DNA from: Escherichia phage K1-5
Direction: 5' to 3' (one strand)
Sequence record: NC_008152.1
Length of the DNA: 44,385 nucleotides
The notes under the pieces are model-generated. The model had not been told where the DNA came from and did no database searches. It was given only the letters and a program-made list of their open reading frames with translations. The translations under genes and the position numbers were made by a program. Below are positions 3,301-43,975 of the stretch, one piece after another; the stretch's first letter is position 1, and every line of letters starts with the position of its first letter.

Positions 3301-5928
3301 ATGCAAGGCCTACACGCTATTCAACTTCAACTTGAAGAAGAAATGTTTAACGGCGGTATCCGTCGCTTTGAAGCGGACCAACAACGCCAGATTGCATCCG
3401 GTAATGAATCAGACACGGCATGGAATCGCCGCTTATTGTCCGAGTTAATCGCGCCAATGGCTGAAGGTATTCAGGCATACAAGGAAGAGTATGAAGGTAA
3501 AAGAGGCCGTGCACCGCGTGCATTAGCTTTCATTAACTGCGTAGAAAACGAAGTGGCAGCATATATCACGATGAAAATCGTTATGGATATGCTGAACACG
3601 GATGTAACCTTGCAGGCTATAGCCATGAATGTAGCTGACCGCATTGAGGACCAAGTACGTTTTAGCAAGCTGGAAGGTCACGCCGCCAAATACTTTGAAA
3701 AAGTTAAGAAGTCACTTAAGGCAAGTAAGACTAAATCATATCGCCATGCGCACAACGTAGCGGTAGTGGCTGAGAAGTCAGTAGCTGACCGTGACGCTGA
3801 TTTCTCCCGCTGGGAGGCATGGCCTAAAGACACCTTGCTGCAAATTGGGATGACCTTGCTTGAAATCTTAGAGAATAGCGTATTCTTCAACGGGCAACCT
3901 GTCTTCCTCCGCACCTTGCGCACTAATGGCGGCAAACATGGTGTTTACTACCTACAGACTAGTGAACACGTAGGTGAGTGGATAACTGCATTCAAAGAGC
4001 ACGTAGCGCAACTGAGTCCTGCCTATGCTCCTTGCGTCATCCCTCCGCGTCCGTGGGTATCACCTTTTAACGGCGGTTTCCACACTGAGAAAGTAGCAAG
4101 CCGTATTCGTCTGGTAAAAGGAAACCGCGAACACGTCCGCAAGCTGACCAAAAAGCAAATGCCAGAGGTTTACAAGGCTGTTAACGCGTTGCAGGCGACT
4201 AAATGGCAGGTTAACAAGGAAGTTTTACAGGTTGTGGAAGACGTCATCCGTCTAGACCTAGGTTATGGTGTACCTTCCTTTAAACCACTCATTGACCGCG
4301 AGAACAAGCCAGCTAATCCAGTGCCGCTAGAATTTCAGCACCTACGGGGCCGTGAACTGAAAGAAATGCTTACGCCGGAACAATGGCAAGCCTTTATCAA
4401 CTGGAAAGGTGAATGTACTAAGCTGTACACCGCTGAAACTAAGCGCGGAAGCAAATCGGCGGCAACCGTTCGCATGGTTGGTCAGGCCCGTAAATATAGC
4501 CAGTTCGACGCAATCTACTTCGTGTATGCACTGGACAGCCGCAGCCGCGTCTACGCGCAATCTAGCACACTCTCACCGCAATCAAATGACTTGGGCAAGG
4601 CCTTGCTCCGTTTTACCGAAGGGCAGCGTCTTGATAGCGCTGAGGCGCTTAAGTGGTTTTTGGTGAACGGGGCTAATAACTGGGGTTGGGATAAGAAAAC
4701 TTTTGACGTGCGCACCGCTAACGTGCTGGATAGTGAATTTCAAGACATGTGCCGCGACATTGCAGCGGATCCGCTGACCTTCACTCAATGGGTAAATGCC
4801 GACTCCCCTTACGGCTTCCTTGCATGGTGCTTTGAATATGCGCGTTATCTGGATGCACTGGATGAAGGCACGCAAGACCAATTCATGACGCACCTCCCAG
4901 TCCATCAAGATGGTAGTTGTTCTGGTATCCAGCACTACAGTGCTATGCTACGCGATGCAGTAGGTGCGAAAGCAGTAAACCTTAAGCCCTCTGACTCTCC
5001 TCAAGATATTTATGGTGCCGTTGCGCAGGTAGTAATTCAGAAGAATTATGCATACATGAATGCAGAGGATGCGGAAACCTTCACTTCTGGCAGCGTGACT
5101 TTAACAGGTGCGGAGCTGCGTAGTATGGCTAGTGCGTGGGATATGATAGGAATCACTCGCGGCCTGACCAAAAAGCCCGTAATGACACTACCTTATGGCA
5201 GCACACGTCTAACCTGCCGTGAGTCAGTGATTGATTATATCGTTGATTTAGAAGAAAAAGAGGCCCAACGGGCTATTGCGGAAGGGCGTACCGCCAATCC
5301 TGTACACCCTTTTGATAATGACCGTAAAGACAGCCTGACACCTAGCGCAGCTTATAACTATATGACAGCTTTAATCTGGCCTTCTATTTCGGAAGTGGTT
5401 AAAGCCCCTATAGTGGCAATGAAAATGATTCGTCAGCTTGCCCGTTTCGCAGCTAAAAGGAATGAAGGCTTAGAGTATACCCTGCCTACTGGCTTCATCT
5501 TGCAACAAAAGATTATGGCTACTGATATGCTCCGCGTATCTACTTGCTTGATGGGAGAAATCAAGATGAGTCTACAGATTGAAACAGACGTAGTGGATGA
5601 AACGGCAATGATGGGCGCTGCTGCTCCTAACTTTGTGCATGGTCATGATGCCAGCCACCTTATCTTAACAGTCTGCGACCTTGTTGATAAAGGGATTACA
5701 TCTATCGCAGTTATTCATGACTCTTTTGGCACTCATGCAGGCCGTACAGCCGACCTTCGTGATAGCTTAAGGGCAGAAATGGTGAAGATGTATCAAGGCC
5801 GTAATGCACTGCAAAGCCTGCTAGATGAGCACGAAGAACGCTGGTTAGTTGATACCGGAATACAAGTACCAGAGCAAGGGGAGTTTGACCTTAACGAAAT
5901 CTTAGTTTCAGACTATTGCTTCGCATAA
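3301..5928 (+). CDS. T7-like single-subunit DNA-directed RNA polymerase
   Basis: 875 aa; [16 protein letters not shown] (motif A), IHDSFGTHA (motif C), C-terminal ...DYCFA; AGGAG RBS. Confidence 0.97.
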
Positions 5929-5936
5929 TATTAATA

Positions 5937-5966
5937 GGCCATTCCTTCGGGAGTGGCCTTTCTTTT
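5937..5966 (+). terminator. Hairpin with UUCG-type loop plus T-run just after the RNAP gene
   Basis: ggccattcc-ttcg-ggagtggcc followed by tttctttt. Confidence 0.55.
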
Positions 5967-6001
5967 ACCTACTACCTGTAACATTTCATTAACATAAAAG
6001 T

Positions 6002-6017
6002 GTCTCACATGTGAGAC
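6002..6017. promoter_or_regulatory. 16-bp perfect palindrome GTCTCACATGTGAGAC (copy 1)
   Basis: Read directly; immediately upstream of promoter 6020. Confidence 0.6.
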
Positions 6018-6019
6018 TT

Positions 6020-6040
6020 ATTTACCGGACACTATAGGAT
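6020..6040 (+). promoter_or_regulatory. Phage RNAP promoter (early-type variant)
   Basis: atttaccggacactataggat; 2 nt downstream of a 16-bp palindrome. Confidence 0.6.
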
Positions 6041-6081
6041 AGCCGTCGGAGACGGGAAAGAAAGGGAAGATAAAGGATATA

Positions 6082-6140
6082 AAGGAAGTAATAGGTATTA
6101 AAGGTTATATAGGTTATCTAGGAATACCTATTACCTTCTT
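6082..6140. other. AT-rich dyad element (candidate primary replication origin)
   Basis: 12-bp inverted arms gtaataggtatt (6088..6099) and aatacctattac (6123..6134) flanking aaaggttatataggttatctagg; lies between two phage promoters after the RNAP gene. Confidence 0.4.
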
Positions 6141-6182
6141 CCTTCCTCTTATTACCACTCAGAGGAAGGGCAGACCTAGGTT

Positions 6183-6198
6183 GTCTCACATGTGAGAC
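6183..6198. promoter_or_regulatory. 16-bp palindrome GTCTCACATGTGAGAC (copy 2)
   Basis: Read directly; upstream of promoter-like 6204. Confidence 0.6.
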
Positions 6199-6203
6199 TT
6201 CGT

Positions 6204-6224
6204 ATTTACCGGACAGTATAGATA
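6204..6224 (+). promoter_or_regulatory. Phage RNAP promoter-like variant
   Basis: atttaccggacagtatagata; preceded by a second copy of the 16-bp palindrome. Confidence 0.4.
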
Positions 6225-6251
6225 AGATTAACTCACTTTGGAGATTTAACC

Positions 6252-6380
6252 ATGCGCAACTTTGAGAAGATGGCCCGTAAAGCTAACCGTTTTGACATGG
6301 AAGAGGGGCAGAAGAAAGGCAAGAAGCTGAATAAGCCTGTCCGTGACCGTGCATCTAAACGCGCTGCGTGGGAGTTCTAA
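6252..6380 (+). CDS. Small basic protein (42 aa), below ORF-track cutoff
   Basis: GGAGA RBS about 7 nt before ATG; MRNFEKMARKANRF...; ends just before the primase start. Confidence 0.35.
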   Translation: MRNFEKMARKANRFDMEEGQKKGKKLNKPVRDRASKRAAWEF

Positions 6381-6383
6381 GTT

Positions 6384-8372
6384 ATGGCTATTATTCAGAA
6401 TGTACCGTGTCCTGCCTGTCAAAAGAATGGACATGATATTACTGGCAACCATCTCATGATATTTGATGATGGTGCCGGCTACTGTAATCGTGGACACTTT
6501 CATGATAATGGTAGACCTTACTATCACAAGCCGGAAGGTGGCATCGAGATAACCGAGTTATCTATTACTGGCAATATCAAATATACACCTTCTCAATTCA
6601 AAGAAATGGAGAAGGAAGGGAAGATAAGCGACCCTAAATTACGTGCCATCGCACTTGGTGGTATGCGTATGAAAGACCGTTGGGAGGTCATGAATGAACA
6701 AGAAAGGGCAGAGCAAGAAGCAGAGTGGAAACTTGATGTTGAATGGTTCCTCACGCTTAAGCGTAAGAACCTTGTTTCCAGGCACATTCGCGGCGACATT
6801 TGCGCATTGTATGATGTACGTGTTGGGCACGATGAAGAGGGTAGAGTCTCACGGCATTACTATCCGCGCTTCGAAAAAGGTGAGCTAGTAGGCGCTAAGT
6901 GTCGCACATTACCTAAAGATTTTAAGTTTGGTCATTTAGGTAAACTCTTTGGTATGCAAGATCTTTTCGGTATGAATACTTTGTCTCACGTGTTAGACAA
7001 GGGAAGACGAAAGGATTGCTTGCTCATTGTCGGCGGCGAACTGGATGCACTAGCAGCGCAGCAGATGCTCCTTGATTCTGCCAAGGGTACTAAGTGGGAA
7101 GGCCAGCCATACCATGTATGGTCTGTCAACAAAGGCGAGTCTTGCCTTGAAGAGATAGTGCAGAACCGTGAGCATATCGCCCAATTCAAGAAGATTATAT
7201 GGGGTTTTGATGGAGATGAGGTAGGGCAGAAGCAGAATCAGCAAGCGGCTCGCCTGTTTCCTGGTAAATCCTATATCCTTGAATACCCCTCTGGTTGCAA
7301 AGATGCTAACAAGGCATTGATGGCTGGCAAGGCTAAAGAATTTGTAGATGCATGGTTTAATGCCAAGTCATCTGATGAAGTCTTTGGTAGCCAGATTAAA
7401 TCTATCGCATCTCAAAGGGATAAGCTCAAGGCTGCACGTCCAGAGCAAGGACTGTCATGGCCTTGGCCTAAGCTGAACAAGGTAACGCTAGGTATTCGTA
7501 AGAACCAGCTTATCATTGTAGGTGCAGGGTCTGGTGTAGGTAAGACTGAGTTCCTTCGTGAAGTAGTTAAGCACCTCATTGAAGAACACGGTGAATCTGT
7601 AGGCATCATTTCTACAGAAGACCCGATGGTCAAGGTGTCCCGTGCTTTTATCGGCAAGTGGATTGATAAGCGTATTGAGTTACCTCCAACCAACGACCCG
7701 AAAGAAGACGGATACCGTGAGGTGTTCGACTATACCGAGGAAGAAGCTAACGCCGCCATTGATTATGTAGCTGATACAGGTAAGCTGTTTGTAGCTGACC
7801 TAGAGGGTGACTATTCGATGGAAAAGGTAGAGCAAACTTGCCTAGAGTTTGAGGCTATGGGTATTTCTAATATCATCATTGATAACTTAACGGGGATTAA
7901 ATTAGATGAGCGTGCTTTTGGTGGGAAGGTTGGTGCACTTGATGAATGCGTCAAGCGGATTGGTACTATCAAAGACCGACACCCGGTTACTATATTCCTT
8001 GTATCACACCTTACACGTCCTCCGGCAAACCGTACCCAACACGAAGAAGGTGGCGAAGTTATCCTTTCTGACTTCCGAGGCTCAGGCGCTATCGGATTCT
8101 GGGCATCTTACGCCTTGGGGATTGAGCGTAATACAAGAGCTGAAACGCTTGACGAAAGGACTACCACGTACATCTCATGTGTCAAAGACCGCGACCAAGG
8201 TATCTACACTGGAACCAAGGTCATGCTTAAGGGTGACATTCAAACCGGACGTTTAATGGAACCACAAGCCCGTACTAAGTCATTTGATACAGGTGAAGCA
8301 AGGCAACAAGAAGTACCAGATTTACCGGATACTATAGAAGAGACTACCTTCGATGAAGAAAGTGAGTTCTGA
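6384..8372 (+). CDS. DNA primase/helicase (T7 gp4-like)
   Basis: 662 aa; N-terminal Cys4 zinc ribbon (CPACQ...YCNRGH), Walker A GAGSGVGKTEF, acidic C-terminus ...DEESEF. Confidence 0.95.
   Translation: MAIIQNVPCPACQKNGHDITGNHLMIFDDGAGYCNRGHFHDNGRPYYHKPEGGIEITELSITGNIKYTPSQFKEMEKEGKISDPKLRAIALGGMRMKDRWEVMNEQERAEQEAEWKLDVEWFLTLKRKNLVSRHIRGDICALYDVRVGHDEEGRVSRHYYPRFEKGELVGAKCRTLPKDFKFGHLGKLFGMQDLFGMNTLSHVLDKGRRKDCLLIVGGELDALAAQQMLLDSAKGTKWEGQPYHVWSVNKGESCLEEIVQNREHIAQFKKIIWGFDGDEVGQKQNQQAARLFPGKSYILEYPSGCKDANKALMAGKAKEFVDAWFNAKSSDEVFGSQIKSIASQRDKLKAARPEQGLSWPWPKLNKVTLGIRKNQLIIVGAGSGVGKTEFLREVVKHLIEEHGESVGIISTEDPMVKVSRAFIGKWIDKRIELPPTNDPKEDGYREVFDYTEEEANAAIDYVADTGKLFVADLEGDYSMEKVEQTCLEFEAMGISNIIIDNLTGIKLDERAFGGKVGALDECVKRIGTIKDRHPVTIFLVSHLTRPPANRTQHEEGGEVILSDFRGSGAIGFWASYALGIERNTRAETLDERTTTYISCVKDRDQGIYTGTKVMLKGDIQTGRLMEPQARTKSFDTGEARQQEVPDLPDTIEETTFDEESEF
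8320..8340 (+). promoter_or_regulatory. Near-consensus phage promoter inside the 3' end of the primase/helicase gene
   Basis: atttaccggatactatagaag. Confidence 0.45.
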
Positions 8373-8387
8373 TTAGTGTATTTATCA

Positions 8388-8413
8388 GGCTTGTCTCACA
8401 TGTGAGACAGGCT
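8388..8413. promoter_or_regulatory. Extended hairpin around palindrome copy 3
   Basis: caggcttGTCTCACATGTGAGACaggctc; follows the primase/helicase stop. Confidence 0.6.
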
Positions 8414-12413: not shown

Positions 12414-12511
12414 TGCAGGCATCTTTTATTATTCTTGGAGTCATATTATTTATGGTAGTATTCTGGGCTTTCTCTGGCATTGACCCAGATTGTGATGGTA
12501 ACTACGACTGA
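12413..12511 (+). CDS. Tiny hydrophobic peptide (32 aa)
   Basis: GAGGAGGG RBS 9 nt upstream; MQASFIILGVILFMVVFWAF... TM-like. Confidence 0.3.
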   Translation: MQASFIILGVILFMVVFWAFSGIDPDCDGNYD

Positions 12512-12579
12512 GTTATACTCAAGGTCACTTACGAGTGGCCTTTATGAATAACTTATTCCTACTTATTTTGTCTAACATG

Positions 12580-12600
12580 ATTTACTGGACACTATAGAAG
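12580..12600 (+). promoter_or_regulatory. Phage RNAP promoter (perfect consensus)
   Basis: atttactggacactatagaag. Confidence 0.8.
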
Positions 12601-12666
12601 GAAAGCATAGGTAATCTAGGTTTATAAGGTAGTATAGGTAATTAAGTAAATATAGGAGATATAAAT

Positions 12667-13044
12667 ATGTCTATGGTAACTACTCTGGTATTCGTGGCTC
12701 AATACTTTCGTGGTCTTGCTAATAAGTTCAAGTCCAAGGCTATCAAAGCTATTGAGGCTCGCATCGAAGCAGTACAGGCAGAGCAAGTTAAAGTTGAAGA
12801 ACATCGTAGTTCTCAAATGATTGACTGTCATAACCGCTACTATGCATCTCGTGATGAACTAAATGCACGTCAAGTCAAAGAGGTAGAAGATATGCTGGCA
12901 CGTCACCAGCAAGAGCGTGACAGCCTGAAAGCTGAATTTGAAGAGAACAAGGCATCAATTGCTCTTGTACATCAAGCTGCATCTGACAGTCTGAAGAAAG
13001 AGATTGTTATGCTGGAAATCGAACTGGATAACCTGACCAAATAA
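12667..13044 (+). CDS. Hypothetical coiled-coil protein (125 aa)
   Basis: AGGAGA RBS; downstream of a consensus phage promoter. Confidence 0.6.
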   Translation: MSMVTTLVFVAQYFRGLANKFKSKAIKAIEARIEAVQAEQVKVEEHRSSQMIDCHNRYYASRDELNARQVKEVEDMLARHQQERDSLKAEFEENKASIALVHQAASDSLKKEIVMLEIELDNLTK

Positions 13045-14557: not shown

Positions 14558-14558
14558 A

Positions 14559-14574
14559 GTCTCACGTGTGAGAC
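14559..14574. promoter_or_regulatory. Palindrome variant GTCTCACGTGTGAGAC (copy 4)
   Basis: Loop differs (CGTG vs CATG), stem conserved; upstream of promoter 14590. Confidence 0.55.
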
Positions 14575-14589
14575 AAATCGGTGTCCGGT

Positions 14590-19633: not shown

Positions 19634-20157
19634 TACGTCCAGCCTCCTTCCTAGATATTCCTGAGATTATAAACCTTGGGAATAAATATGTGGAAGAGGA
19701 AGTCAAGGTTGTAGCCCACCACTCAGCCTCATGGAATGCAGAACAAAGTGCCATAACCTTTGTGCATCTCTTAATAGAGACCCACCACTCAGCCTCATGG
19801 AATGCAGAACAAAGTGCACATAACCTTTGTGCATCTCTTAGTAGAGAAGATTTATCCCTATGGGTTGCTGTAGATGAAGGGCAGATTGTAGGGTTCCTGT
19901 GGGCTGGCTATCACGAGTTGGCCCCTTGGACACCTGTAAGAGTTGCCTCTGACATTCTCTTTTATATTATACCAGAGAGGCGAGGAACACTACTTGGTAT
20001 GCGTCTCATCAAAGCCCTAAAGCAATGGGCTAGTGATAATGAATGCTCTGAGGTTCGCCTGTCTATCGCCTCTGGTATTAATGAAGAACGTGTCGGACGT
20101 ATGTATAAGCGACTTGGCTTTGAACCGTTTGGCACTGTGTATAACCTGAAGTTCTAA
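19630..20157 (+). CDS. GNAT-family N-acetyltransferase-like protein with an internal 22-aa tandem duplication
   Basis: Track ORF 19603; C-terminal IIPERRGTLLGMRLIKAL...SGINEERVGRMYKRLGFEP fits the GNAT motif A/B pattern; duplicated HHSASWNAEQSA block. Confidence 0.55.
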   Translation: MIRPASFLDIPEIINLGNKYVEEEVKVVAHHSASWNAEQSAITFVHLLIETHHSASWNAEQSAHNLCASLSREDLSLWVAVDEGQIVGFLWAGYHELAPWTPVRVASDILFYIIPERRGTLLGMRLIKALKQWASDNECSEVRLSIASGINEERVGRMYKRLGFEPFGTVYNLKF

Positions 20158-24141: not shown

Positions 24142-24176
24142 CCCTATCTACCTTGCGTAGGTAGGGTTCTTTTTGT
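24142..24176 (+). terminator. Hairpin plus T-run terminator after capsid gene
   Basis: ccctatctac-cttgc-gtaggtaggg then ttctttttgtt. Confidence 0.7.
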
Positions 24177-31007: not shown

Positions 31008-31037
31008 AAGGCTTGTCTCACATGTGAGACAGGTCTT
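31008..31037. promoter_or_regulatory. Extended hairpin around palindrome copy 5
   Basis: aaggcttGTCTCACATGTGAGACaggtcttt; between gp15-like and gp16-like genes. Confidence 0.6.
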
Positions 31038-35413: not shown

Positions 35414-35696
35414 ACATGCAGCTACAGAGGACGAGGTTGGCATTCTGCATGGTGCTATTACCAAAATCTTCAATAAGAAAGCACAGGCAATACTGGACAC
35501 TATAGAAGAAGACCCTGATGCAGCATTACATTTAGTGTCTGGTAAGGATATTGGTGCGATGTGTAAGTGGGTTCTTGATAACGGCATTACCGCCACACCT
35601 GCTGCACAGCAGGAAGAGTCCAAGTTATCTAAGCGCCTCAAGGCTATCCGAGAGGCATCCAGTGGTAAGATAATTCAATTCACTAAGGAGGATTGA
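35397..35696 (+). CDS. Terminase small subunit (gp18-like)
   Basis: Track ORF 35352; likely GTG 35397 start after GGAGGGAG; directly upstream of the large subunit; assignment by synteny. Confidence 0.55.
   Translation: MSVHNKHAATEDEVGILHGAITKIFNKKAQAILDTIEEDPDAALHLVSGKDIGAMCKWVLDNGITATPAAQQEESKLSKRLKAIREASSGKIIQFTKED
35488..35508 (+). promoter_or_regulatory. Near-consensus phage promoter embedded in the small terminase gene
   Basis: caatactggacactatagaag; 18 of 21 positions match, all mismatches at the 5' edge. Confidence 0.45.
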
Positions 35697-37594
35697 TGGC
35701 TAAGGCAAGAGAATCACAAGCGGAGGCTCTTGCCAGATGGGAGATGCTACAGGAGTTACAGCAGACCTTTCCTTACACCGCGGAAGGTTTGCTTCTCTTT
35801 GCAGATACAGTTATTCATAACTTAATTGCAGGCAACCCTCATCTGATTCGTATGCAGGCGGATATCTTGAAGTTCCTATTTTACGGACACAAGTACCGCC
35901 TCATCGAAGCGCCTCGTGGTATCGCTAAGACAACACTATCAGCAATCTATACGGTATTCCGTATTATTCATGAACCGCATAAGCGTATCATGGTTGTGTC
36001 CCAAAACGCCAAGCGAGCAGAGGAAATCGCAGGTTGGGTAGTTAAAATCTTCCGTGGCTTAGACTTTCTTGAGTTTATGCTGCCGGATATCTACGCTGGG
36101 GACCGTGCATCCGTTAAGGCGTTTGAGATTCATTACACCCTACGTGGTAGTGATAAGTCTCCTTCTGTATCCTGTTACTCAATCGAAGCAGGTATGCAGG
36201 GTGCTCGTGCTGATATTATTCTAGCGGATGACGTAGAGTCGATGCAGAATGCTCGTACGGCAGCGGGCCGTGCCTTGCTTGAGGAGCTGACTAAGGAGTT
36301 TGAATCTATCAACCAGTTTGGGGATATCATTTACCTTGGTACACCTCAGAACGTAAACTCTATCTACAACAACCTACCTGCTCGTGGTTACTCTGTTCGT
36401 ATCTGGACTGCGCGTTACCCTTCAGTAGAGCAAGAGCAATGTTATGGCGACTTCCTTGCACCTATGATTGTTCAAGATATGAAGGACAACCCAGCACTTC
36501 GCTCAGGGTACGGGTTGGATGGTAATAGTGGTGCACCTTGTGCCCCTGAAATGTATGATGATGAAGTCCTGATTGAGAAGGAAATCTCTCAGGGTGCTGC
36601 TAAGTTCCAGCTTCAGTTCATGCTTAACACTCGCATGATGGATGCTGACAGATACCCATTACGCCTGAACAATCTAATCTTCACCTCGTTTGGTACAGAG
36701 GAAGTCCCTGTGATGCCTACGTGGAGTAATGATTCCATAAACATCATTGGTGATGCACCTAAGTATGGTAACAAGCCTACGGATTTCATGTACAGACCTG
36801 TAGCTCGCCCATATGAATGGGGTGCTGTCTCCCGCAAGATTATGTATATTGACCCTGCGGGTGGTGGTAAGAACGGAGATGAGACGGGTGTAGCCATCGT
36901 ATTCCTGCACGGCACATTCATTTATGTGTATCAGTGCTTTGGTGTACCTGGCGGATACCGAGAGTCGTCCCTGAATCGCATTGTGCAGGCCGCAAAGCAG
37001 GCGGGTGTTAAAGAGGTATTCATTGAGAAGAACTTTGGTCATGGCGCGTTTGAGGCGGTAATTAAGCCGTACTTTGAACGAGAGTGGCCTGTAACTCTGG
37101 AAGAGGATTACGCCACCGGACAGAAAGAGTTGCGTATCATTGAGACGCTGGAGCCGCTCATGGCAGCCCATAGGCTTATCTTCAATGCAGAGATGGTGAA
37201 GTCAGACTTTGAGTCGGTACAGCACTATCCGCTTGAACTACGCATGTCCTACAGTCTTTTCAATCAAATGTCGAACATAACGATTGAGAAGAACAGCCTC
37301 CGGCACGATGACCGCCTAGACGCCCTGTATGGCGCTATACGGCAATTAACTTCTCAGATAGACTATGACGAGGTTACACGGATTAATCGCCTCAGAGCGC
37401 AGGAGATGCGCGATTACATCCATGCTATGAACACACCTCATCTACGCAGGGCAATGCTATATGGAGATTACGGTACTGAGCGAAGAGTGACCAACACTTC
37501 CGTAGCGATGCAGCAGCGAGTTTACGGGCAGAACTACCGAAATAAATCGGCAAGCAGAAATACACTTTCTGCAAGGATTTCAAGGACTTATTAA
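35696..37594 (+). CDS. Terminase large subunit (gp19-like)
   Basis: 632 aa; AAGGAGG RBS; deviant Walker A RGIAKTT, Walker B IILADDVE, RNaseH-like nuclease segment IDPAGGGKNGDETGVAI. Confidence 0.9.
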   Translation: MAKARESQAEALARWEMLQELQQTFPYTAEGLLLFADTVIHNLIAGNPHLIRMQADILKFLFYGHKYRLIEAPRGIAKTTLSAIYTVFRIIHEPHKRIMVVSQNAKRAEEIAGWVVKIFRGLDFLEFMLPDIYAGDRASVKAFEIHYTLRGSDKSPSVSCYSIEAGMQGARADIILADDVESMQNARTAAGRALLEELTKEFESINQFGDIIYLGTPQNVNSIYNNLPARGYSVRIWTARYPSVEQEQCYGDFLAPMIVQDMKDNPALRSGYGLDGNSGAPCAPEMYDDEVLIEKEISQGAAKFQLQFMLNTRMMDADRYPLRLNNLIFTSFGTEEVPVMPTWSNDSINIIGDAPKYGNKPTDFMYRPVARPYEWGAVSRKIMYIDPAGGGKNGDETGVAIVFLHGTFIYVYQCFGVPGGYRESSLNRIVQAAKQAGVKEVFIEKNFGHGAFEAVIKPYFEREWPVTLEEDYATGQKELRIIETLEPLMAAHRLIFNAEMVKSDFESVQHYPLELRMSYSLFNQMSNITIEKNSLRHDDRLDALYGAIRQLTSQIDYDEVTRINRLRAQEMRDYIHAMNTPHLRRAMLYGDYGTERRVTNTSVAMQQRVYGQNYRNKSASRNTLSARISRTY

Positions 37595-37613
37595 TTACTG
37601 GACACTATAGAAG
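37593..37613 (+). promoter_or_regulatory. Phage RNAP promoter just after the terminase large subunit
   Basis: aattactggacactatagaag; overlaps terminase stop; followed by an ATAGGT-rich block. Confidence 0.7.
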
Positions 37614-37755
37614 GAAGGCCCAGATAATAAGAGAAAATAATAGGTAATATATATATAGGTTAACCTAGGTTATATAGGTATGCCTTAGTATGGGTGTACT
37701 CCTGTACACCCTATTCCTTACTACCTTACTATATTTACATAATAGGAGAGAGACA

Positions 37756-38034
37756 ATGGCTAATGATTATAGTAGTCAACCATTAACAGGTAAGTCTAAG
37801 AGAAAGCAGGTACAACCTGTAAGTGAAGAACTAATGCTTCCGGTGCTCAAAAAAGAGGAAGTTAGTAAGAAAAGCAATGTTATTAATGATGCCACCAAAT
37901 CAGGTAAACAGAAAGGGGCCATGGTGTGCCTTGAAGTGAAAGGTGGTGTATTGAAGATTGCTATCGCGGTTGATGGCAAAGAAGATTCAGAGTGGAAGTT
38001 AGTAACAGTGGAACCAACTGTTAACCCAGTTTAA
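37756..38034 (+). CDS. Hypothetical protein (92 aa), paralogue A
   Basis: Track ORF 37690; ATG 37756 after AGGAGAG; shares KKEE..SK...SGKQKGAMV.LE...IAVA motif with the next ORF. Confidence 0.55.
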   Translation: MANDYSSQPLTGKSKRKQVQPVSEELMLPVLKKEEVSKKSNVINDATKSGKQKGAMVCLEVKGGVLKIAIAVDGKEDSEWKLVTVEPTVNPV

Positions 38035-39366: not shown

Positions 39367-41265
39367 ATGGCTAAATTAACCAAACCTAATACTGAAGGAA
39401 TCTTGCATAAAGGACAATCTTTGTATGAGTACCTTGATGCGAGAGTTTTAACATCAAAGCCGTTTGGTGCTGCAGGTGACGCCACTACTGATGATACGGA
39501 GGTTATAGCTGCTTCATTAAACTCTCAGAAAGCTGTCACAGTCTCAGATGGTGTATTCTCTAGCTCTGGTATTAACAGTAATTACTGTAACTTAGACGGC
39601 AGGGGTAGTGGCGTGCTAAGTCACCGTTCAAGTACAGGTAACTACTTAGTATTTAACAATCTACGTGCAGGTCGCTTAAGTAATATTACGGTAGAAAGTA
39701 ATAAGGCGACTGATACAACTCAGGGACAGCAGGTATCCCTTGCTGGTGGAAGTGATGTTACTGTAAGTGACGTTAACTTCTCAAACGTTAAAGGTACTGG
39801 TTTCAGTTTAATCGCATACCCTAATGATGCGCCACCTGATGGACTTATGATTAAAGGCATTCGAGGTAGCTATTCCGGCTATGCTACTAATAAGGCAGCC
39901 GGATGCGTACTTGCTGATTCCTCAGTTAACTCCCTCATAGATAACGTCATTGCTAAGAACTACCCTCAGTTCGGAGCAGTAGAGTTGAAAGGTACAGCCA
40001 GTTACAACATAGTCAGTAATGTTATAGGGACAGATTGCCAGCATGTAACTTACAACGGCACTGAAGGGCCAATAGCTCCTTCTAATAACCTTATCAAGGG
40101 GGTGATGGCTAATAACCCTAAGTATGCAGCGGTTGTTGCAGGCAAAGGAAGTACGAACTTAATCTCAGACGTGCTCGTAGATTACTCAACTTCTGATGCT
40201 AGGCAGGCTCATGGTGTTACAGTAGAGGGTTCTGATAACGTCATAAATAATGTGCTTATGTCAGGATGTGATGGTACTAACTCTTTAGGACAAGGGCAGA
40301 CTGCTACAATTGCACGCTTTATAGGTACAGCTAATAACAACTATGCGTCTGTATTTCCTAGCTACAGTGCTACAGGTGTTATTACTTTCGAATCCGGCTC
40401 TACCCGTAACTTCGTAGAGGTAAAGCACCCTGGCAGGAGAAACGACCTTCTCAGTTCTGCTAGTACTATTGACGGTGCAGCTACTATTGACGGCACTAGT
40501 AATAGTAACGTAGTGCACGCACCTGCCTTAGGGCAGTACATAGGTAGTATGTCAGGTAGGTTCGAATGGCGGATTAAGTCCATGTCACTCCCTTCAGGCG
40601 TTCTTACTTCTGCTGATAAGTACAGAATGCTTGGAGATGGTGCTGTGTCATTAGCTGTAGGTGGGGGCACTTCTTCTCAAGTTCGCCTATTTACTTCTGA
40701 TGGTACTTCTCGGACAGTGTCCCTCACCAACGGTAACGTGCGTCTTTCTACCAGTAGCACAGGCTTTTTGCAGTTAGGTGCTGATGCAATGACCCCAGAC
40801 AGTACTGGTACATACGCATTAGGTTCCGCCAGCCGAGCATGGTCTGGCGGTTTTACTCAAGCAGCATTCACTGTTACCTCAGATGCTCGGTGTAAAACAG
40901 AACCTCTTACTATCTCAGATGCCTTACTGGATGCTTGGTCTGAAGTTGACTTTGTGCAGTTTCAGTATTTGGATCGTGTTGAGGAGAAGGGTGCAGACTC
41001 AGCTAGATGGCACTTCGGTATCATCGCTCAGCGAGCTAAGGAGGCTTTCGAACGTCACGGTATAGATGCACATCGCTATGGCTTCTTGTGCTTCGACAGT
41101 TGGGATGATGTATACGAGGAAGATGCCAATGGCTCTCGTAAACTGATTACACCAGCAGGTTCCCGCTACGGTATTCGTTACGAGGAAGTACTGATATTAG
41201 AGGCTGCGTTGATGCGGCGGACTATTAAGCGTATGCAGGAAGCACTAGCTTCCCTGCCTAAGTAA
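39367..41265 (+). CDS. Tailspike 1: beta-helix polysaccharide depolymerase (K5-lyase-like) with C-terminal self-cleaving chaperone domain
   Basis: Track ORF 39307; ATG 39367 gives 632 aa; repetitive beta-helix-like rungs (NVIAKN, NIVSNVIG, NVINNVLMS); C-terminal SDARCK ... HFGIIAQRAKEAF resembles the peptidase S74 intramolecular chaperone. Confidence 0.7.
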   Translation: MAKLTKPNTEGILHKGQSLYEYLDARVLTSKPFGAAGDATTDDTEVIAASLNSQKAVTVSDGVFSSSGINSNYCNLDGRGSGVLSHRSSTGNYLVFNNLRAGRLSNITVESNKATDTTQGQQVSLAGGSDVTVSDVNFSNVKGTGFSLIAYPNDAPPDGLMIKGIRGSYSGYATNKAAGCVLADSSVNSLIDNVIAKNYPQFGAVELKGTASYNIVSNVIGTDCQHVTYNGTEGPIAPSNNLIKGVMANNPKYAAVVAGKGSTNLISDVLVDYSTSDARQAHGVTVEGSDNVINNVLMSGCDGTNSLGQGQTATIARFIGTANNNYASVFPSYSATGVITFESGSTRNFVEVKHPGRRNDLLSSASTIDGAATIDGTSNSNVVHAPALGQYIGSMSGRFEWRIKSMSLPSGVLTSADKYRMLGDGAVSLAVGGGTSSQVRLFTSDGTSRTVSLTNGNVRLSTSSTGFLQLGADAMTPDSTGTYALGSASRAWSGGFTQAAFTVTSDARCKTEPLTISDALLDAWSEVDFVQFQYLDRVEEKGADSARWHFGIIAQRAKEAFERHGIDAHRYGFLCFDSWDDVYEEDANGSRKLITPAGSRYGIRYEEVLILEAALMRRTIKRMQEALASLPK

Positions 41266-43914: not shown

Positions 43915-43975
43915 CAGGTTAATATCTTAGTATAAACAAGGGCAGACTTAGGTTTGTCCTTAGTGTATTCCAAAG
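43915..43975. repeat. Three CTTAG(T/G) repeats immediately left of the right terminal repeat
   Basis: tcttagtat, acttaggtt, ccttagtgt at about 43925, 43946, 43958. Confidence 0.5.

Follow-up and report, generated by a model that had tools for sequence, protein, structure and literature searches.

Phased TAGGT-type arrays behind three promoters of Escherichia phage K1-5: candidate replication promoters of the T7 type

Why should three promoters of Escherichia phage K1-5 each lead directly into a short AT-rich block in which nearly the same word returns again and again? The window analysed here is the complete genome of this SP6/K1-5-type podophage (NC_008152.1; 44,385 bp), which is near-identical to Vectrevirus phages and has direct terminal repeats of 234 bp and 12 recognisable phage-polymerase promoters of the type ATTTACTGGACACTATAGAAG. 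An original prediction had noticed recurrent ATAGGT(A/T)A and CTAGG words in three promoter-proximal blocks and had proposed that the blocks could be secondary replication origins, protein-binding iterons or extended translation-initiation elements. Here we describe them as strand-specific, regularly phased arrays and argue, tentatively, that they could well be T7-type replication promoters with leaders that form primers or R-loops. A full-text search found no published description of the arrays, although an earlier mention is not excluded.

The arrays lie behind three of the 12 promoters, and the AGG of every array stands on the non-template strand:

6056-6125, + strand: block 1 array, seven AGG units at 6063, 6074, 6083, 6093, 6102, 6111 and 6120, spaced by 9-11 nucleotides (nt)
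12598-12662, + strand: block 2 array, six AGG and a degenerate unit TAAGTAAAT at +49
37612-37685, + strand: block 3 array, with a purine-rich period-10 start (AGATAATAAG x 2.8) and later AGG units at 37642, 37657, 37667 and 37676

The ATAGGT-type words of the original prediction are present where it had placed them, and the comparison with shuffled genomes that it had proposed puts ATAGGTWA above expectation (10 copies against 3.4 +/- 2.0, a number reached in 0 of 100 shuffles), with seven of the ten copies on the + strand and five of those seven within the three blocks. CTAGG is not enriched (67 copies vs 90 expected) and was rejected as a separate motif; within the blocks it is the unit variant cTAGGt. 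The actual signal is a tandem array of 9-10-nt units with the consensus tATAGGTAAt, almost free of C, as obtained from six phages with three blocks each, the set that also underlies the counts of spacings and of flanking bases. The units of block 2, for example, align as ATAGGTAAT CTAGGTTTA TAAGGTAGT ATAGGTAAT TAAGTAAAT ATAGGAGAT. The distance from AGG to AGG is 9 nt in 39 cases and 10 nt in 29, and the unit flanks are biased towards T, which occupies position -1 in 70 and position +3 in 67 of the 107 units. Tandem Repeats Finder reported period 9 at 6070-6122 and 12607-12656 and period 10 at 37622-37649. Local composition does not account for the 9-10-nt spacing, as dinucleotide shuffles of single blocks rarely match it (P < 0.0002 in blocks 1 and 2, P = 0.005 in block 3). 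The series are in register with the transcription start, with phasing from +3: the AGG words of block 2 fall at +3, +13, +22, +31, +40 and +58, and those of block 3 in the Klebsiella relative at +3, +6, +13, +22, +32 ... +90. When a chain was defined as at least four [AT]AGG[AT] words with gaps of at most 16 nt, the + strand of K1-5 held chains only at the three blocks, against a mean of 0.06 per dinucleotide-shuffled genome; there were none on the - strand of the K1-5 genome, and no - strand arrays in eight SP6-group genomes.

The comparison with SP6-like phages, likewise proposed beforehand, showed all three blocks at equivalent positions in SP6, UAB_Phi78, R4596, Klebsiella phage VR702 and Lelliottia phage phD2B, the last of which has a different promoter sequence and still possesses the blocks. 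Proteus phage PM85 and Erwinia phage phiEa1H have blocks 1 and 3 and lack the block 2 array; phages without this array keep a promoter there, after the DNA polymerase gene. Some 20 more block 1 or block 3 sequences, all distinct and from viral contigs, follow an equivalent plan. Conservation of the arrays spans five genera. Among the relatives the spacers and the number of units (4 to 11) turn over heavily while AGG and the phasing are kept; the block 1 units of SP6 are almost all AGGT. After the RNA polymerase gene of Colwellvirinae we found other purine words (TAGAG, AGTAG/AGTGG) at roughly 9-10-nt spacing, for example in Vibrio phage phi-A318 at 1755-1855 (annotated between tandem promoters) and in Pseudomonas phage uligo at about 1830-1950, which suggests a wider design principle.

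This conservation makes it very improbable that the arrays are functionless low-complexity filler, produced when replication slips in intergenic spacers and retained because it does no harm. Unit number and runs of TA dinucleotides do vary between close relatives, and other arrays of short words, with no known function, exist in T7-group genomes, the left-end CTTAGT array being one. However, position, strand and word recur over the five genera despite the turnover of spacers, only 0.06 clusters per genome would be expected by chance, and the arrays stand in register with the transcription start.

The arrays also stand out in duplex stability. When every 60-bp window of K1-5, T7 and relatives was ranked by nearest-neighbour duplex stability and GC content, the three weakest and lowest-GC windows of K1-5 were the three blocks (at 37622, 12607-12612 and 6067; GC of 22-25%), with block 3 the weakest of the genome and block 2 the second. 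They are also the three most C-poor windows of the + strand (0, 1 and 2 C), and not a single C occurs in 6054-6113 of block 1. The four weakest windows of T7 (417, 5931, 18561 and 39243) lie just downstream of phiOL, phi1.1B, phi6.5 and phiOR, and only one window of that genome is poorer in C than the AT-rich region of the T7 origin. In T7, phi1.1A/B are where replication starts, and phiOR and phi6.5 can be used as secondary origins (PMC8373140, citing Rabkin & Richardson 1988). The weakest-window criterion thus recovers known T7 origins, and the same criterion picks out the K1-5 blocks; the enteric relatives mostly agree with this ranking.

The surroundings of block 1 strengthen the resemblance to T7:

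3301-5928: RNA polymerase gene, upstream of block 1
5936-5959: terminator-like hairpin between the RNA polymerase gene and promoter P1
6019-6042, + strand: promoter P1, TATTTACCGGACACTATAGGATAG, a match to the promoter family, with +1 = G at 6037
6043-6055, + strand: predicted 5' hairpin of the P1 transcript, CCGTC-GGA-GACGG
6124-6169, + strand: pyrimidine-rich arm AATACCTATTACCTTCTTCC, predicted to pair with the last array units, followed by a second small hairpin, CCTTCCTC...GAGGAAGG
6183-6198, + strand: palindromic hairpin GTCTCACATGTGAGAC, terminator-like, with a U/C-rich tail
6203-6226, + strand: second promoter P2, +1 = 6221
6252-6380: gene 1.1 homologue (Pfam Phage_1_1, E = 1.7e-14)
6384-8372: primase-helicase gene (DnaB_C/Toprim)

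The primary origin of T7 has the order gene 1, phi1.1A, R1.1, phi1.1B, AT-rich region, gene 1.1, and block 1 likewise lies between the RNA polymerase gene and a gene 1.1 homologue, with tandem promoters. Because of this synteny, block 1 would be a primary origin. The secondary-origin proposal, the best supported of the three made originally, would need amendment on this point. The P1 transcript has no gene of its own ahead of P2, and for this reason a promoter whose product is the leader itself fits block 1.

The palindrome that precedes P2 is one of six copies of a hairpin, TGTCTCACATGTGAGAC, located at 6001-6019, 6182-6200, 6982-7000, 8392-8410, 14558-14576 and 31014-31032, often just upstream of phage promoters. 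Compensated versions occur in SP6 (GTCCAACGTGTTGGAC) and phiEa1H (GTCTCACACGTGAGAC). Possible roles are termination or pausing, processing, and the binding of a dimer.

Block 3 has its T7 likeness in phiOR, which follows gene 19, as block 3 follows the large terminase gene:

35693-37594: T7-type large terminase gene (Terminase-T7_RNaseH-like, E = 1.6e-35)
37592-37615, + strand: block 3 promoter, directly after the large terminase gene, +1 = 37610
37692-37711, + strand: GC-rich, terminator-like hairpin GGGTGTAC-TCCT-GTACACCC
from the hairpin to 37735, + strand: U/C-rich tract TATTCCTTACTACCTTACTATA
37744-37749, + strand: ribosome-binding site (RBS) of a 92-amino-acid gene, ATG at 37756

The junction between array and hairpin is marked by a conserved CCTTAGT (37682-37689).

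Block 2, which lies behind the DNA polymerase region, has no positional counterpart in T7, and its succession of an R1.1-like hairpin, a promoter, an AT-rich word array and an RBS nevertheless resembles the T7 primary origin:

12506-12558, + strand: hairpin homologous to the T7 R1.1 RNase III site (T7 5848-5925), ACTCAAGGTCAC..GAGTGGCCTTTATGA
12579-12602, + strand: block 2 promoter, +1 = 12597
12652-12657, + strand: RBS, TAGGAG, which is the last array unit; ATG at 12667
12667-13044, + strand: gene for 125 amino acids

The R1.1-like hairpin, just upstream of the block 2 promoter, has a fold z-score of -3.4, and the segment is conserved in DNA as far as Vibrio N4/ICP3-type phages.

As in T7-type origins, a consensus promoter leads into each array, the region downstream is easily melted and, for blocks 1 and 3, the position is equivalent to that in T7. 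From this anatomy we infer origin activity along the following lines. In this scheme block 1 would correspond to the primary origin of T7 and block 3 to phiOR, and block 2 would be a lineage-restricted extra copy, in use also as the 5' leader of the downstream gene. The phage RNA polymerase would fire directly into a specialised leader, and transcription would both open the DNA and supply the primer. The array would serve as the least stable duplex of the genome; its non-template strand is almost free of C, and the transcript would hence be unable to fold on itself, while GG (rG:dC) could anchor it every 9-10 nt from +3 onwards. In blocks 1 and 3 the polymerase would next meet a stable hairpin, at which it might pause, and then a U/C-rich tract. 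The nascent RNA may stay on the template, or return to it, as an R-loop that the phage DNA polymerase extends, and the displaced, structure-free strand could be the loading place for the hexameric primase-helicase.

The likeness to T7 origins thus consists in a phage-polymerase promoter that is directed into the weakest duplex of the genome, with a C-poor non-template strand and recurring short words in the leader (CTTAAG-type in T7, where the AT-rich origin region measures 61 bp). The differences are equally definite: the K1-5 word is of the TAGGT type vs the TTAAG type in T7, whose + strand holds no AGG arrays; the phasing is far more regular (9-10 nt, from +3); in block 1 it is the first of the two promoters, not the second, that the array follows; and behind the arrays come conserved hairpins and pyrimidine tracts. 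A primer made by transcription, Gs on the non-template strand and a downstream structure that stops the polymerase are also features of ColE1 RNA II and of the mitochondrial LSP/CSB II origin, which uses a T7-like RNA polymerase. Unlike those R-loop origins, the K1-5 arrays offer only GG doublets in an AU-rich context.

Several observations weigh against replication promoters as the explanation. The literature searched yielded no experimental mapping of origins in SP6/K1-5-type phages. Cumulative GC and AT skew is monotonic in K1-5 and gives no origin signal, nor does it in T7. A rough estimate of RNA:DNA minus DNA:DNA energy, made with nearest-neighbour parameters, ranked only the promoter-proximal purine stretch high and not the TAGGT units. 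The U-runs of the hairpins behind the arrays are weaker than that of the capsid-gene terminator at 24143-24172, and an AT-rich unstructured leader would also suit a strongly translated gene, as in block 2. The Erwinia phage phiEa1H does not conform to the expectation of an easily melted region: its arrays are not AT-rich and consist of a 27-nt unit, ctatAGGtAGGcccAGGttatccAGGt, present four times with AGGT kept. These GC-richer repeats of ctatAGGtAGGcccAGGttatccAGGt lie behind the large terminase promoter, at about 40650-40800, and the stretch behind the RNA polymerase gene, at about 7170-7260, is similar and likewise rich in AGGT. Because the phiEa1H arrays are GC-richer and keep AGGT, AT-richness alone cannot be the selected feature, and the TAGGT-type word itself, not only the composition, seems to be under selection. 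The origin model leaves both the T-AGG-T preference and the 9-10-nt phasing unexplained, and any role of the exact word in it is conjectural.

Since the word and the phasing are left over, a sequence-specific single-strand reader is a serious rival, even if we consider it unlikely to be the answer. The arrays would then be a new kind of iteron, read from the transcription start onwards as a single strand, either nascent RNA or displaced non-template DNA, by a conserved phage or enterobacterial factor; this reader would be oligomeric, with each subunit taking up one (T)AGG(T) at intervals of 9-10 nt, and it could act in replication initiation, regulation or RNA protection. Such a reader would account for the conserved word, kept as AGGT in the GC-richer Erwinia arrays, for the biased T flanks at -1 and +3, for the strict strand specificity in the eight SP6-group genomes, for a regular spacing of 9-10 nt that is not the helical repeat of B-DNA, and for a phasing that persists while unit number varies from 4 to 11. 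If so, the three promoters would form a class of their own, dedicated to making a protein-coated leader (a primer, a loading platform or a sponge) and not an mRNA. However, a screen of six proteins encoded near the blocks gave no obvious sequence-specific binder and hence no candidate reader. Colwellvirinae hold TAGAG and AGTAG at the equivalent position, and any reader would therefore have to co-vary. The SP6 primase reportedly recognises 5'-GCA-3', a site essentially absent from the C-poor arrays, and primase recognition sites were rejected for this reason. The protein-binding iterons of the original prediction are conceivable, as the survival of the word in arrays that are not AT-rich points to a sequence-specific reader. 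Classical double-stranded iterons are helix-phased repeats of about 17-22 bp with a Rep initiator; the units found here are strand-specific and 9-10 nt long, and no Rep-type domain occurs among the six neighbouring proteins.

Other explanations of the word did not hold. A two-tetrad G-quadruplex pattern was discarded because GG runs with loops of at most 8 nt are common in coding regions and thus undistinctive. Purine richness ranked top only for block 1 of K1-5 and was inconsistent across phages. The SP6 promoter contains TAGGT, which might make the arrays promoter decoys, but the array word is TAGGT also in phages whose promoters lack it (K1-5, phD2B, PM85 and phiEa1H). No sigma-70 promoters above shuffle expectation were found within the arrays.

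The predicted RNA structures around the arrays bear on a further possibility, namely that the arrays function as RNA, in leaders that affect processing, stability or translation, which we regard as doubtful. In blocks 1 and 3 the AGG units would be the 5' arm of long imperfect hairpins with CCU-rich tracts, that is, RNase III-type substrates or 5'/3' stabilisers, and in block 2 an unstructured C-free leader with Shine-Dalgarno (SD)-like words would aid ribosome loading. The long hairpin of block 1, between array and pyrimidine arm, was indeed predicted for each of the six phages tested, with z from -2.1 to -3.2, and the 5'-terminal hairpin of the P1 transcript shows compensatory changes in three of its five pairs in an 11-phage alignment (CCATC/GATGG, CCCTC/GAGGG). 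The hairpin behind the block 3 array still pairs in relatives with altered stems (GGGAGGTA/TACCTCCC, GGGTAC/GTACCC, GGGTACTC/GAGTACCC). T7 reportedly has RNase III sites right after several promoters, and R1.1, between phi1.1A and phi1.1B, occupies the position of the block 1 hairpin, which is likewise promoter-proximal, intergenic and imperfectly paired. However, the register of the long block 1 pairing is not kept in the alignment, from which the consensus structure recovers only the 5' hairpin. Block 2 (RNA z = -0.8; single-stranded DNA likewise unstructured on both strands) and most of block 3 (z = +0.1 to -1.1) are without structure, and pairing of the block 2 array with an upstream pyrimidine tract in read-through RNA was considered and not predicted. 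The arrays lack the GGCCUUUAUGA motif and the two-stem shape of R1.1, whose clear homologue at 12506-12558 is separate and looks quite different. Rfam 15 gave no match for the blocks at gathering thresholds, only sub-threshold matches of the block 1 hairpin to plant miRNA precursors, which are chance. Phages that lack the block 2 array nevertheless retain the promoter after the DNA polymerase gene.

Translation in particular, the role implied by the proposed extended translation-initiation elements, is disfavoured as a general explanation. The TAGGT units are weak partners of the anti-SD sequence, at -3.1 to -3.7 kcal/mol vs -7.3 kcal/mol for real RBSs, and 23% of genomic 10-mers reach -3. In block 2 an RBS forms the last unit, and the earlier statement that each block ends near an AGGAG RBS is correct for this block, the only one whose array runs into an RBS. 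Block 1 has no adjacent gene because P2 intervenes, and the block 3 array ends about 65 nt before the RBS, with the hairpin and the pyrimidine tract in between.

The terminator-like hairpins with U/C-rich tails after the arrays (6183-6198 and 37692-37711) raise the question of whether P1 and the block 3 promoter, P3, make short non-coding RNAs of about 100-165 nt, from +1 to these hairpins, that titrate a host RNA-binding factor. We judge this improbable. In its favour, P1 has no gene of its own, its RNA opens with a GGA-loop hairpin, and several block 1 units of K1-5 read AAGGA. CsrA-type proteins require GGA, as found by systematic evolution of ligands by exponential enrichment, but most units are AGGU and block 1 of SP6 is almost without GGA; the array sequences do not show the many GGA motifs, preferably in hairpin loops, that would mark a CsrA sponge. 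The U-runs are weak next to that of the capsid-gene terminator, and block 2 has no terminator.

If the blocks are replication promoters after all, they could be used as orthogonal origins driven by the SP6 polymerase for engineering, a purpose that phiOR of T7 already serves. The analysis names three short candidate origin regions for SP6/K1-5-type phages, a group that includes widely used therapeutic and capsule-targeting phages and is the source of SP6 RNA polymerase, and it shows that a simple rule, to look for the weakest duplex window immediately downstream of a phage promoter, finds the known T7 origins. Composition alone is insufficient, as the arrays are strictly phased and strand-specific and TAGGT outlasts AT-richness; initiation or the handling of RNA may thus involve a sequence-specific step that has yet to be discovered in this well-studied phage group.

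Another short-word array was observed at the left end of the genome, where at least 16 + strand copies of CTTAGT, spaced by 10-13 nt, lie next to the left terminal repeat (130-731, densest at 322-411). Genome-wide there are 58 copies vs 30.5 expected, including those at 43926 and 43959. By analogy this array appears to correspond, in the SP6 group, to the SRL/SRR short repeats of T7 (CCTAAAG units); no function is known to us for either. Like the promoter arrays, both consist of strand-specific short words in non-coding DNA, here spaced by about 10-13 nt; they differ in the word, in their location at genome ends vs promoter leaders, and in having no register with a transcription start.

Further T7-like signals were seen at other sites. 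ATCTGTT, the class II pause and termination signal of the T7 concatemer junction, is under-represented overall (3 vs 7.7 expected), and its single + strand copy, at 234-240, falls precisely on the inner boundary of the 234-bp terminal repeat. A strong hairpin with a T-run, CCCTATCTACCTTGCGTAGGTAGGGTTCTTTTTG, at 24143-24172 directly after the major capsid gene is likely the counterpart of the T7 Tphi terminator. An exact direct duplication of 37 nt occurs in a coding region (19715-19751 and 19781-19817, 66 nt apart).

Words at 1497-1525 in the early region had also been counted as related to the blocks. They form no array and lie inside a long hairpin after a boxA, an arrangement that T7 shares, outside the element described above:

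1467-1479, + strand: boxA GCTCTTTAACAAT, upstream of the long hairpin
1467-1566, + strand: boxA and long R0.3-like hairpin (z = -3.9), upstream of ocr
1575-1907: ocr gene (E = 1e-30)

GCTCTTTAACAAT matches the rrn/lambda boxA consensus and occurs three times (710-722, 1255-1267 and 1467-1479); it is also present in SP6, in Proteus phage PM85 and in T7 at 814, upstream of gene 0.3. Judged by sequence, the copies are likely NusB/E antitermination sites for the host RNA polymerase, paired with RNase III-type hairpins.

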